A stretch of DNA of 63,538 bases, filler included, from Stramenopiles sp. TOSAG23-6 (GCA_900128565.1; 25 parts of 25 records of this genome joined end to end with filler, not necessarily neighbours in it), one strand, 5' to 3'; positions 6,178-61,011 are shown, counted from the first letter of the whole stretch. Translations and numbers: made by a program. Notes: generated by a model not told the origin, from the letters alone.

Positions 6178-7098
6178 ATGTCAAAATATGCTTCAGCAAA
6201 GACAAATGTGTATATCGGAGATTCAGAGTTAAAGACTGATTATACTAGGACAAATCATTTGGGAGATCCATGGCAAAAAGGGTTTCAACCAAGTGCTTTT
6301 AGTGCCCAAGCAAAAGCAGAATTAAGAAAAGTTAATTTTGATTTTGGCTATCAACCAAACGTCTATGAAACAACATCAAAAGAAATGTCAGATTATAATC
6401 CTTATAAAACGAGACGTCGAAAATCGGTAAACCCTGCAAAACAGTGTAATATCTATTTTGGTAATCAAGAGCAAAATCAATCAAAAGACTGGCAATCATG
6501 TTACACAGAAGCAACATTTGAAAAGCCACTCGATGGTGCAATTCAAAATCGTCTCGCTGGTAAAGCAAATGGACAAGATAATTATAAACCTCATTTTGTA
6601 TTTGGAAATATATCTGGTTCGAAACATTGGCATGTGACAAACAAAATGATGAAGCCTGTTCGTTTTCATAGACAATTTTGTACCTAACCAAAAAACAAAA
6701 AAAAAAGAAAAAAAAATTTAAAATTTTTTTTAAAATTTTTCAAAACTAACAAAAAAATTCATATTTTTTTAGATATTTTCATACAAAATATGATCCAAAC
6801 GTAAATTATACACAACGAGCTGCCGATGGAAAAGCTCTTGTCGCAAAAACAAATTGGGATTTGGGCGATTATAAAACTGAATATAAAACTGGGTCAATGT
6901 ACGTTTTTATGAATTTCTAATTTAAATTTTTTTTTCATACGAAATTTCGTACCTAACAATTTTTTGAAATTTTTTTTTGAAATATTTTGAAATTTTTAAT
7001 TTTTTTTTTACCTAACGAAAAAAAAATTGTACTACAAAAAATATTTTCTACAATACATGGAATTAAACAAATTTGCTAAACAACCGAAACCTTTTTAG
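6178..7098 (+). CDS. Repeat-containing protein, possibly ciliary microtubule-inner-protein-like; exons 6178-6657, 6792-6898, 7059-7098
   Basis: Repeated N-x-x-F/L-G...Y-x-T motifs; the frame is continuous only with GT-AT removal of two family introns; function is a guess. Confidence 0.6.
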
Positions 7099-7583
7099 TG
7101 ACAAATGCATACCATAGCTCTAATGTAGTAAATATTTTTCGTGAAGTTGCATCAACAATTGTTCCATCTGGTCGCAAATGAGCCTATTATGAAAATTGTA
7201 TATAGATATTATTAGATTTGTTAGCATAAATAAAATATAAGAAATAGTTTGAATATTTAAGAAATGTATCAAAGAAATAGACTACATATAAATATATACT
7301 ACTTACAACTACATGAATTCCTCGTTTAAAATATGCGGTGAATCTATTATCTCCTGGTCTGATAATTTCAGCATCAAGCAGTTGACGCATTGGAGAACGA
7401 ACAAACCTACCTGAACTTTGAAGACGTTTCATTTTTCTTTGATTTTTTACAATATCAGAACGTTGATAATCTTGAATAAATTTATTTTGTGCTTCATTTC
7501 GTTGGTTTTCTTCACTTATAGCAGCAATAACTTTATCTGAATACGAAAAGCAACGTCTACTCAATATTGCTGCAAATGATGAA
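7076..7583 (-). CDS. RAMA-like domain protein, C-terminal fragment; canonical GT-AG intron 7184-7306
   Basis: Spliced peptide MRQLLDAEIIRPG...AHLRPDGTIVD...IFTTLELW resembles the RAMA domain; intron GTAAGT...AATAG. Confidence 0.55.
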
Positions 7584-7737
7584 NNNNNNNNNNNNNNNNN
7601 NNNNNNNNNNNNNNNNNNNNNNNNNNNTTAATTAATTAANNNNNNNNNNNNNNNNNNNNNNNNNNNNNNNNNNNNNNNNNNNNTTTTGTACCTAACAAAT
7701 TTTAGTTTTTTTTTTGAAATATTTTTCCAAAATACAT

Positions 7738-58783: not shown

Positions 58784-59824
58784 TTATTTACAATTTTCCT
58801 CGCTTCCAACACATTGATTTCCCTCAAAGGAGCTATCTCTTTTATCACCCTCTTCACAAAAAGTACAAAAACGATTACCAAAAAAGGACCGGCGTTTATG
58901 CAGTAAACAAATTTCTCGGGCACCAGTATCATACTGATAGCCCTGAAGAATAGTACTACACGAAATTCCAAATACTGTGGACTTTTTTTTTCTTTCTATA
59001 TATTTCAAAAATGGAAGTGCTTTTTGTGCAGATATGTCAAGCCCTAACAAACGCAGAAGCATTTCGGGGTCGAAAGTTTTAAGTTGAGTGTCTATTTCAA
59101 GCTCATGTTCTATGAACAATAATGTTCCTTTTTGACCTTGAATGTCATCCAACTTTGCCAGTGACAAAATTGTTTCCAGTGTACCGTTTAAGGTTGGGTC
59201 ATATCTAGACAGAATATCTGAGCGTTCTAAAGTAGGTTTGAAGCTTGGGATAAGTATTGCATTTCCACGTTGTCCCGGGAAGAAACTATCAACATTGTCA
59301 TCAATTAAAATAATACGACTAATTTTTGCCCCAGCTTTCTCATTTACTACAACTTGTAAATCTTTTGAATACGGCCATTCTATTTCTTCATTAACAACGC
59401 ATGACTCTCTATAAAAAATAGAATCAAATATAATACTCCATCGAGTTTCTAACCACTTTATAGGGGGTTCTGCACGTTCTTTCACACTTGCCGTGAAGAT
59501 ATGCAAGTGTAAACCTTTATAGTCCTTCAAACTATTCAAAAATACAAATAAANGAGGCCGCATCACTGCGACAGAATAATGCCACTCGCCAGAATGTTCA
59601 AATGTATAAGGTCCAAAACAGGTATATCCTAAGTTGTGCATTTTTGTATGATATACTAGAGCTTCAATATTATTTAAGAAATCCTTTGTAAAAAAAAAAC
59701 TTCCATCAAGATCCAAAACAACGTCCAGTCTTTGGCCAATCGGGAGTAGTTCTCTTGTACCGGTGCCATGACTTCCAGAAATAACAAAACTTGCGATAAC
59801 AAAATAGAAAAAGCAAAGTTGCAT
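58784..59824 (-). CDS. FCP1/SCP (NIF)-like HAD phosphatase with a hydrophobic leader
   Basis: VVLDLDGS, RP....FL, IFTAS, YRE.C, KDL, ILIDD and N.I.IP.F motifs. Confidence 0.8.
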   Translation of the reverse strand: MQLCFFYFVIASFVISGSHGTGTRELLPIGQRLDVVLDLDGSFFFTKDFLNNIEALVYHTKMHNLGYTCFGPYTFEHSGEWHYSVAVMRPXLFVFLNSLKDYKGLHLHIFTASVKERAEPPIKWLETRWSIIFDSIFYRESCVVNEEIEWPYSKDLQVVVNEKAGAKISRIILIDDNVDSFFPGQRGNAILIPSFKPTLERSDILSRYDPTLNGTLETILSLAKLDDIQGQKGTLLFIEHELEIDTQLKTFDPEMLLRLLGLDISAQKALPFLKYIERKKKSTVFGISCSTILQGYQYDTGAREICLLHKRRSFFGNRFCTFCEEGDKRDSSFEGNQCVGSEENCK

Positions 59825-60340
59825 TTTAAAGAGAGAAATAAAAATTGCGTTGAAAGAGTCTGAATATTTGAATTAGGATAACGATTTATCAAGGGAATAT
59901 TCGCTTGGATTTATATTAGAAGAAGATCAGCCCCAATGGTCAAGGAATCAGAAGTTCAGAACCAAGTGATCGATTCGATATGACATTGTATAATAATTTG
60001 ACATTTGTGTCACATTTTTTAATTTATAAATTATAATTTTAAGTTTTTTTTTAACCGTTCAGTTATACGTTAACTTATAAAATCCAATCGAGGAATCGAG
60101 AAATTGAATCTCTGAACAGCCTGTCAAATTTTGACCGACTCTCTCTCTCTCTCGAGAGAGAGCACTTTCATTTAACTATTATAATTTATACGAGGAGTAG
60201 TCACATTGTATTATTCTTTATTTCTATTTGAGTCACCCAGAATACCGCATGTTCGAATATTTTACAATTGCTACATAGCTGTCACCAGTAATTGTATTCT
60301 GGTTCAGTTGTAAAAGCACGAGTTAAAATTATCCGTAAGA

Positions 60341-61011
60341 ATGGATGACGCCTCTAACTGCTCCGCAGTTATAGGTTTTGCACATGCAACAACACCTGGT
60401 CAGCACGTTTTCATAGTGCAAGTACAGTGGAATAATGAAAAATATGTAATATACAAGCGCTATTCAGACTTTCAAAAACTTCGCGATACTCTTGTGTACG
60501 AATTAGATCCATCTTTTCATGCTTTGTTACCTGAGTTTCCTAGTTGCGGGTTCGGAATTCTATCAAAAGATGAGGTTAGTTTCGTTGAAAATACACGAAT
60601 AAGACTACAAGAGTGGATATCCATCGTTACTCAATTAGCAACCCCTTCACGACCTGAAGTGATGAAAGCTTTTCTGAACTTTTCAAATACTGGGCGAAAT
60701 GTTCCTCGTGGTTTTTCATGTACGTTTTCAAAATTGAATTTTTTCATCTACACTTATTTTTTCATCGAACGTTTTGTATTGAATTTTTTTTTTGAAAAAA
60801 CAAAATATTTTTTCATTATAAATGGGGAAAGGATACCGTCACGAGAACAACAAGTTTGTGTGTATCAGAATTACAGATAGAACGCAAAAAAATAGAGACA
60901 TCTCGTTGCGAAGCTTTGGATATTTTACAGCGAGGAGCTTTTTTTCGAAAATTTGGTCGCCGGGGCTTTCCGTCCAAGTGTTGGGTTCAGCTGTCCGAGC
61001 GTGGTGACATT
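60341..61011 (+). CDS. PX plus PH domain protein (3'-partial); intron 60720-60823
   Basis: KRYSDF..L...L, LP.FP PX motifs; L.RG..F.KFGR.G.P PH start; joined in frame by GT-AT removal. Confidence 0.85.

Follow-up and report, generated by a model that had tools for sequence, protein, structure and literature searches.

The terminal guanine of introns is among the most constant features of eukaryotic genes, and is read in the catalytic centre at the second step of splicing. In hemiascomycete yeasts, introns combine a near-invariant GTAYGT donor (Y, pyrimidine) with a TACTAAC-like branch motif tens of nucleotides (nt) before the 3′ site, and a Y-A pair precedes the last base. Here we describe a family of introns of about 100 nt in a 63,538-nt stretch of DNA from Stramenopiles sp. 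TOSAG23-6 (GCA_900128565.1), referred to below, at its full length, as the window. These introns have yeast-type donor and branch signals, but most of them end in AT. Unlike yeast introns, which end in G, they also carry an extra C in the branch motif (TACCTAAC).

In described introners (Micromonas, Aureococcus, dinoflagellates and others), a direct repeat supplies one splice site and the element the other; the families have GY-AG borders, and surveys for them start from annotated introns (PMC9860276). The window resembles these systems in having many near-identical short introns in sense orientation in unrelated genes, in the flanking repeat, and in the restoration of the messenger RNA (mRNA) by splicing. 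It differs in its borders, which are not of the GY-AG kind, in a minimal terminal inverted repeat, and in the apparent dinucleotide duplication, mostly of AT, that acts as the 3′ end. Because the AT duplication forms the 3′ end, such a family could spread only in a host that splices at YAT. In the tunicate Fritillaria borealis, fewer than 10% of introns are GT/AG, some end in AC or AT, the major spliceosome removes them, and U2AF is duplicated and diverged (PMC13326754). There too, a large majority of introns escape GT/AG; however, the 5′ ends of Fritillaria introns are non-canonical and the ends diverse (PMC13326754), whereas in the window every signal other than the last base (5′ GT, branch motif, U-rich tract) is of the textbook kind. 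Amoebophrya, like the source of the window a marine protist with mostly non-canonical introns and repeated elements, has more than 60% non-canonical introns, a subset of which are repeated, with direct repeats overlapping the borders and inverted-repeat hairpins of 8-20 nt (PMC7789003). Its introns have no preferred termini, in contrast to the uniform GT...YAT found here, for which no stable hairpin is predicted (PMC7789003). Extended end pairing with variable borders, as in euglenids and Amoebophrya, is not what the window holds, as its borders are uniform and at most 6 bp can pair. Animal GT-AT introns, which U12-type splicing tolerates, are isolated cases, with seven of U12 type among four species and one of U2 type conserved between human and mouse (PMC1557818), whereas here about four in five catalogued introns are of this kind and lack U12 signals.

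None of the compared systems matches the combination of GT donors and a uniform YAT acceptor in one introner family, which, as far as we have searched, is apparently undescribed. Our searches of the literature on MAST-3, stramenopiles, introners, and protists with GT-AT or non-canonical introns returned no description of such a genome, in line with the original prediction for this stretch, which knew of no account of a GT-AT-dominated genome. The main texts of the genome papers on the group (PMC5778133, PMC8163842, PMC12614181, PMC9903769), supplements aside, make no mention of introns or splicing in this sense.

Results

Most catalogued introns end in AT

The window is not a single locus. It joins about 25 contigs of about 2.45 kilobases (kb) each, ordered by size and connected by 100-base N linkers around a stop-codon spacer, and its guanine-cytosine (GC) content of 19-36% is that of an AT-rich eukaryote. 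The window contains 42 copies of the donor motif GTAYGTTTT and 55 of TACCTAAC, where 2.9 and 0.9, respectively, would be expected. A motif-driven census with a curated list gave 38 complete candidate introns between positions 159 and 60823 (Table 1), with lengths of 87-324 nt and a median of 104.5 nt. Twenty-seven have GT-AT termini, and one each has GA-AT, AT-AT and GT-AN, the N standing in the assembly; the others are GT-TT (two), GT-GT (one), GT-AA (one, doubtful) and GT-AG (four). Nine further 3′ ends, the partner parts of which were lost at contig breaks, terminate in AT (seven), GT (one) and AG (one). When the GT-AN intron is included, AT-ending introns make up 30 of the 38 complete copies, or 37 of 47 counting broken ones; this share of about 80% is an upper bound, because the census is motif-driven and the GT-AG intron at 9477-9577, which lies outside the family, surfaced only by homology. 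Some donors (294 and 53894) were picked with reading frames in view, and a motif-free census through adjacent open reading frames (ORFs) or low-GC islands was too noisy in such AT-rich DNA. All counts exclude the intron at 25105-25204, itself undefinable, and three introns starting at 29238, 37640 and 44050 with undefinable 3′ ends. The original prediction had estimated about 30 AT-ending and about 5 AG-ending introns, close to the 30 and 4 of the census, and the limits that it gave, 6658 and 60823, are the ends of two catalogued introns. Its statement that all copies lie in the sense orientation of their host genes holds for every complete catalogued copy, beside a single antisense fragment of about 33 nt near 51975-52010.

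The splice signals are conventional except for the last base

Among 36 introns, the donor has G at position 1 in 35, T at 2 in 35, A at 3 in 32, Y at 4 in 34, G at 5 in 27 and T at 6 in 34. A CTAAC-type putative branch motif is present in 37 of the 38 introns, its branch-like A lying a median of 42 nt (31-55) before the 3′ end, and a T-rich tail accompanies it. At the 3′ site of 36 introns, position -3 is Y in 33, position -2 is A in 33, and position -1 is T in 31, G in three and A in one, while the first exon base is a purine (R) in 33. Judged by its bases, this is the classical YAG-R pattern with the last intron base changed. The AG-ending members of the family have G exactly where the other copies have T, and of the terminal YAG that classically closes U2-type introns, the AG is kept in 4 of 38. 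In nine non-AG introns, one of them RNA-confirmed, an AG that follows the branch motif is passed over, and earlier ATs of the tail are also left unused. The relaxed 3′ recognition that had been proposed for this genome does not describe this behavior: the cut falls at one fixed position of the element (Y-A-T), nine introns bypass AGs, and the AGs downstream of 9727-9830 are unused. The 3′ site looks re-specified rather than loosened.

These signals suggest that the major (U2-type) spliceosome does the cutting, with the adenosine of TACCTAAC as the putative branch point. A compensatory change in U2 small nuclear RNA (snRNA) for the extra C of this motif was considered and dropped, as CTAAC alone fits the general consensus.

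Removal is supported by reading frames, homologues and RNA

For each intron, the longest ORF running up to the donor was compared with the longest ORF running from the acceptor, a pairing that joins in frame by chance in 1/3 of cases. The motif-defined cuts join the longest ORFs in 34 of 38 introns (binomial p = 9e-13). The earlier proposal had excision of GT...AT restoring conserved motifs.

Homologous proteins place four of the junctions exactly. The long DPPIV frame has as its top match the EukProt gene model GSMAST32...2537.1 (P0001), followed by oomycete proteins at about 30% identity. P0001 and the helicase model P0122 are letter-identical to the window wherever aligned, indicating that both were modelled on the same or a near-identical assembly. 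The GSMAST32 label and the oomycete matches suggest that the organism is a heterotrophic stramenopile of MAST-3 type. With an AT end, intron 9727-9830 gives a gap-free alignment to 9/9 DPPIV homologues; the published model ends the intron at an AG 6 nt past this AT and loses two residues, and the AG 2 nt past the AT would shift the frame. A helicase model built from GT-AT cuts is stop-free over 590 residues and gap-free against 6/6 homologues at its junctions 52230, 52521 and 53149, where P0122 reads into or through the introns. Two of these junctions also fix the register. The bases before the donor are TT at 52521 and GG at 53149, and an upstream shift of both cuts by 2 nt introduces a TAA stop into the first and replaces Arg with Asn in the second, an Arg that is common to 5/6 homologues. 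These unequal flanks, together with the failure of the shift, put the 5′ cut just ahead of GT and the 3′ cut immediately behind AT.

The two published models (P0001, 7684-10140; P0122, 50999-53427) follow GT-AG rules: false introns are cut from a 597-codon exon, real introns are read and residues are skipped. Both are wrong at every AT-ending intron that they encounter. When the protein collection was searched with the exon that follows intron 9727-9830, no match exceeded 85% identity over part of the query, and the matches belong to other organisms.

Mapping of RNA and DNA contigs covers one contig of about 2.4 kb (35762-38208) with eight family introns, of which uncovered parts are uninformative. 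In the polyA metatranscriptome run X7, contig record 19 aligns to 36737-36834 and 36934-37018, and record 21 to 37275-37336 and 37452-37639; in each, the two parts occupy adjacent record positions with no letters between. The 99 and 115 nt skipped are the introns 36837-36935 and 37339-37453. Since the same dinucleotide flanks both ends (AT in one intron, TT in the other), the aligner's placement of the two joints equals GT-AT and GT-TT removal. The internal AG of 36837-36935, about 12 nt past the branch motif, is bypassed in the RNA. Record 27 of X8 begins at the same exon border, and record 17 of X7 extends 9 nt into 36391-36502, a match that is not interpretable. In the DNA run X2, an independent metagenome, contigs traverse intron 35887-35991 and cross a border of 37018-37106. 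The introns originally claimed from the sequence are thus represented by two segments skipped exactly in polyA-RNA contigs and by others present in DNA. Precise removal is documented for two introns by polyA-RNA contigs and for four junctions by homology: the RNA is cut before the donor G and after the final two bases, which returns the mRNA to its pre-insertion sequence.

Nearly all introns are copies of one element

The original prediction, which placed the introns in unrelated genes, had overlooked that nearly all of them are copies of one introner-like family of about 100 nt with subfamilies. In an alignment of the 34 introns of 170 nt or less, nearly all, including three that end in AG, have the same order of blocks: the donor GTAYGTTTT, a short variable block, a T run, the core TTTCRTACGAAATTTYGTACCTAAC, an A/T run, TTTTGAAATATTTT, and the end block YCAMAATACAT (M, A or C). 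Pairwise identity reaches 83-90% in the best pairs, with a median pair at 64%, and groups of introns have multi-base signatures of the variable block in common, which defines subfamilies. The common variable sites are all CpG-type transitions (GTACGT/GTATGT, TCGTAC/TCATAC, TTCGTAC/TTTGTAC) and not compensatory pairs; these CG to TG/CA changes suggest CpG decay and, perhaps, methylation of the copies.

An element motif lies within 130 nt at 22 of the 48 contig ends that adjoin linkers, and the family breaks the assembly. Summed depth bins in three runs reach 14,000-86,000 over elements against 0-7 over exons, a hint only, as depth pools all contigs and organisms. A scan of metagenome contigs with the element core found one locus (L001:2475-2578, minus strand of the locus), with AT before GT, an ACAT end and joining frames, and the same scan of prokaryote genome contigs gave no match. 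The contig that holds this locus belongs to another organism, has 35% GC and is otherwise dissimilar to the window; a canonical-looking GTAAGT donor stands a few dozen codons later.

The flanks of the copies tend to carry a short direct repeat. Of the 38 introns, 23 have AT immediately ahead of the donor, and AT makes up 10% of window dinucleotides. The two introns that end in TT also have TT ahead of the donor. In 24 of 38 cases the intron closes with the same 2 nt as the exon upstream of it, against 17.9 by shuffling (p = 0.0004). A mobile element that duplicates 2 nt of its target would be expected to leave such a repeat, and the family probably moved by transposition. Eight introns end in AT without AT before the donor, indicating that the 3′ AT is today independent of a matching flank.

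Discussion

Our analysis favors an introner-like family whose GT...YAT introns are removed by the major spliceosome, a reading to which we assign a probability of about 0.75. One family of elements of about 100 nt would have colonized the genes of an AT-rich, stramenopile-like eukaryote, each copy bringing a yeast-type donor GTAYGTTTT, the branch-type TACCTAAC in a conserved core, a T-rich tail, and a 3′ block of AATAC plus two bases, mostly AT and usually repeating the two bases before the donor. The element proper may be GTAY...AATAC, with the intron consisting of this element and one copy of the duplication, so that the 2-nt target duplication of a mobile family would supply the 3′ terminal dinucleotide. 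A U2-type spliceosome would recognize donor and branch normally and dock YAU instead of YAG in the second step; G at the last position would still work, as four introns end in AG. The broader proposal is that in a marine, free-living stramenopile the preferred last intron base of the major spliceosome changed from G to U with the yeast-like donor and branch kept, alongside the spread of an introner that uses an AT target duplication as its 3′ site and now accounts for most introns; we regard the odds of this as even.

The same ends could be read as AT-AC introns, of U12 type or rare U2 type, with the 5′ cut 2 nt before GTAYGT and the 3′ cut right behind AATAC. Intron ends that pair an initial A with a final C are known to be compatible, 22 of the 38 introns have AT both before the donor and at the end and would give the same mRNA in both registers, and the aligner placed both RNA joints in the AT-AC register. 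However, this register brings in the stop at 52521 and loses the conserved Arg at 53149, and would leave AT, TT, GT, GA, GG, CT, CA, CG, AA, TA or TG as 5′ dinucleotides and AC, AA, GC, TC, GT, AT or CC as 3′ dinucleotides. U12 motifs are not enriched: the donor RTATCCTT, described earlier as absent, has five matches on both strands of the 63.5 kb and none at catalogued donors, the U12 branch motif TCCTTAAC has one match in the window, and the conserved branch-like motif is 31-55 nt away from the end instead of 10-15. Taken together, this makes AT-AC introns a very unlikely reading. We hold it similarly improbable that these are ordinary GT-AG introns with a nearby AG acceptor, the AT ends being a by-product of reading. 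Published models that use such AGs, which occur within nine non-AG introns and just downstream of some (9727-9830), show gaps or intron-derived insertions against all homologues, whereas AT ends give none; moreover, the RNA contig over 36837-36935 bypasses an internal AG, and frames join at AT in 34/38 introns.

Removal by something other than the spliceosome, through end pairing or a dedicated nuclease, a route suggested for the nonconventional introns of euglenids and for Amoebophrya introners, is unlikely but deserves more weight. It would suit the non-canonical 3′ end and a repeat family with flanking direct repeats. The donor-spanning AT+GTAT is complementary to ATACAT, the final six bases, and the two are paired in the minimum-energy fold of 3/6 introns; the element core holds a 16-nt palindrome. 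Yet the folds of six introns are no more stable than shuffles (z -1.4 to +0.6), the palindrome varies by CpG-type transitions rather than by compensatory changes, and copies flanked by TT have no possible terminal helix, although one of them is removed in RNA. The near-invariant GTAYGT, the CTAAC-type motif at a steady distance and the YA before the last base are instead a spliceosomal layout. Elimination at the DNA level, as for the internal eliminated sequences of ciliates, would explain short AT-rich elements with a 2-nt flanking repeat, which resemble TA-bounded eliminated sequences, and a fragmentary assembly with stray Ns and a palindromic chimera (28116-30565) invites artefacts of assembly or amplification, or insertions in dead genes. 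These accounts have little chance of being right: the intron-containing form occurs in an independent DNA metagenome and the joined form in polyA RNA, the copies are always in sense with strand-specific signals, and the host genes are intact and conserved after removal.

Several points weigh against spliceosomal removal of a GT...YAT introner family as we have proposed it. Four of 38 introns fail the frame test: at 294-159 and 10472-10366 another right-hand frame is longer, at 58073-57750 the 3′ end is uncertain, and at 36391-36502 no GT-AT cut mends the frame, a misfit that could stem from a donor displaced 2 nt upstream or from an error in the assembly. Support from RNA concerns two junctions only, in assembled contigs of one metatranscriptome study and with identical flanking dinucleotides, and the joined form of both might occur in the DNA runs as well; the RNA libraries are, in addition, very rich in element sequence, as either unspliced RNA or carried-over DNA. 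As the introns are copies of one family, the conservation of their motifs is largely shared descent, and the AG class is under-counted by the census. With regard to mobility, the terminal inverted repeat is only 4-6 nt (GTAY...RTAC), neither an autonomous element nor a transposase was seen in the 63.5 kb, and the target duplication is putative. Finally, the assignment to the U2-type spliceosome and to a branch-point adenosine draws on sequence signals, and an Rfam scan of the window found no family above threshold and hence no snRNA.

If the proposed GT...YAT introner family is real, altered factors of the second step or the 3′ site are predicted (the U2AF small subunit, Slu7, Prp18, Prp8, or the snRNA core), and a natural intron end with U for G and otherwise textbook signals would be a clean system for studying the choice and evolution of 3′ splice sites. 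Its spread, dependent on a non-AG acceptor, would be a first among introner families and would link mobile intron gain to altered splicing machinery. The gene catalogues now available for the lineage would then be systematically wrong; catalogues, completeness scores and functional inferences for this abundant group of uncultured marine grazers probably need to be redone with GT-AT introns in mind.

Coordinates, host genes and further observations

Table 1. Complete candidate introns and broken copies, in positions of the window. ORFs join, the longest reading frames on either side join after removal; codons are given left/right.
Position	Strand	Feature	Basis and remarks
159-294	-	candidate intron GT-AT, 136 nt, donor GTGTAA	3′ end family-like; joining frame 31 codons, not longest on right; doubtful
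6658-6791	+	intron GT-AT, 134 nt, CT before donor	longest ORFs join, 209/42 codons
6899-7058	+	intron GT-AT, 160 nt, last of its gene	frames join; stop 12 codons on
9477-9577	+	ordinary GT-AG intron, 101 nt, non-family, donor GTAATT, branch-like TACTAAT	homology only (DPPIV gene)
9727-9830	+	intron GT-AT, 104 nt; unused AGs 2 and 6 nt downstream of AT	9 homologues gap-free
10366-10472	-	intron GT-AT, 107 nt	joining frame 131/30 codons; longest right-hand ORF in another frame
10794-10893	-	intron GT-AT, 100 nt	ORFs join, 83/116 codons
11104-11373	-	intron GT-AT, 270 nt, lengthened by a 46-nt internal repeat (3 copies)	ORFs join
11482-11584	-	intron GT-AT, 103 nt	ORFs join, 214/56 codons
12347-12447	-	intron GT-AT, 101 nt, donor GTAGGT	ORFs join
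18362-18468	+	intron GT-AT, 107 nt	ORFs join, 151/225 codons
19087-19186	+	intron GA-AT, 100 nt, donor GAACGT	ORFs join, 216/230 codons
19526-19612	+	intron GT-AT, 87 nt, GT before donor	ORFs join; intron open in frame, so weaker
22096-22208	-	intron GT-AT, 113 nt	ORFs join
22294-22397	-	intron GT-AT, 104 nt, GA before donor	ORFs join
23024-23139	-	family intron GT-AT, 116 nt, downstream exon cut by contig end	motifs only
23488-23598	-	intron GT-AG, 111 nt, family-like body	ORFs join, 225/133 codons
28775-28873	+	intron GT-AT, 99 nt; mirror copy 29808-29906 in same palindromic contig, counted once	ORFs join, 193/124 codons
33475-33684	-	intron GT-AG, 210 nt, G at family T position	frame kept by AG end only
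35887-35991	+	intron GT-AT, 105 nt	ORFs join; unspliced in contig of DNA run X2
36391-36502	+	family element, 112 nt	removal leaves frame broken; 114 nt would restore it
36637-36740	+	intron GT-AT, 104 nt	ORFs join
36837-36935	+	intron GT-AT, 99 nt, unused AG about 12 nt past branch motif	polyA-RNA contig X7 record 19
37018-37106	+	intron GT-AT, 89 nt	ORFs join; DNA contig crosses 3′ border
37339-37453	+	intron GT-TT, 115 nt, TT also before donor	polyA-RNA contig X7 record 21
37899-38004	+	intron AT-AT, 106 nt, donor ATATGT	ORFs join
41902-42006	-	intron GT-GT, 105 nt, TT before donor	ORFs join, 269/38 codons
43625-43721	-	intron GT-AT, 97 nt, donor GTTTGT	ORFs join
48273-48366	+	family intron GT-AT, 94 nt, downstream exon lost at contig end	motifs only
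48732-48830	+	intron GT-AG, 99 nt, G at family T position	ORFs join
48975-49074	+	intron GT-AT, 100 nt	ORFs join, 77/224 codons
51383-51484	+	intron GT-AT, 102 nt, donor GTTTTT	ORFs join
51610-51715	+	intron GT-AN, 106 nt, last base N in assembly	ORFs join
52230-52331	+	intron GT-AT, 102 nt	gap-free vs 6 helicase homologues; P0122 reads into intron
52521-52612	+	intron GT-AT, 92 nt, TT before donor (register testable)	gap-free vs 6 homologues; 2-nt shift gives TAA stop
53149-53286	+	intron GT-AT, 138 nt, GG before donor (register testable)	keeps Arg of 5/6 homologues; shift gives Asn
53783-53894	-	intron GT-AT, 112 nt, donor GTACAT	ORFs join; donor picked with frames in view
54404-54520	-	intron GT-TT, 117 nt, TT also before donor	ORFs join, 68/191 codons
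57750-58073	-	family intron, 324 nt, branch-motif block in tandem, 3′ end uncertain (AA at family position)	
60720-60823	+	intron GT-AT, 104 nt	ORFs join, 135/62 codons
2564-2640	+	3′ part, family intron at contig end, ends GT	
7684-7737	+	3′ part, family intron at contig end, ends AT	
12617-12697	-	3′ part, family intron at contig end, ends AT	
17909-17962	+	3′ part, family intron at contig end, ends AT	
20310-20361	-	3′ part, family intron at contig end, ends AT	
27935-28015	-	3′ part, family intron at contig end, ends AG	
28116-28200	+	3′ part, family intron at contig end, ends AT; mirror copy 30481-30565	

The products of the ORFs in the window are ordinary eukaryotic ones: Kelch, DPPIV, protein kinase, ankyrin, EF-hand, RPA, an AMP-binding enzyme, a flavodoxin domain, Sel1, NIF phosphatase and a DExH helicase. 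Elements are carried by the genes for DPPIV, the AMP-binding enzyme and the helicase, by an SNF2-like gene, a flavodoxin-domain gene and others. The contig at 28116-30565 is an inverted duplication of itself, with opposite-strand copies around about 29340 that join within an intron, and looks like a chimera of amplification or assembly.

Within the helicase exon, the antisense fragment of about 33 nt at 51975-52010(+) is translated; it reads as the element core in reverse complement and may represent an antisense copy turned coding. Two introns contain tandem repeats. At 57783-58017(-), an 82-nt period of two branch-motif blocks is repeated in 2.8 copies, which gives seven TACCTAAC in one intron, and at 11233-11370(-) a 46-nt unit present three times contains the telomere-like AACCCTAAACCTA. 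The donor nonamer GTATGTTTT is tandemly repeated 5.8 times on the minus strand at 18931-18982. A telomere-like 13-mer, AACCCTAACCCTA, occurs 26 times in the whole window with at most one mismatch, against 0.04 expected (for example at 748-760(-), 28613-28625(+), 38085-38097(+), 52846-52858(+) and 58048-58060(-)). In several introns it lies just past the donor or near the 3′ end. Where checked, the local gene has the C-rich strand of the 13-mer as its sense strand, and in exons the 13-mer encodes Asn-Pro-Asn-Pro in frame.

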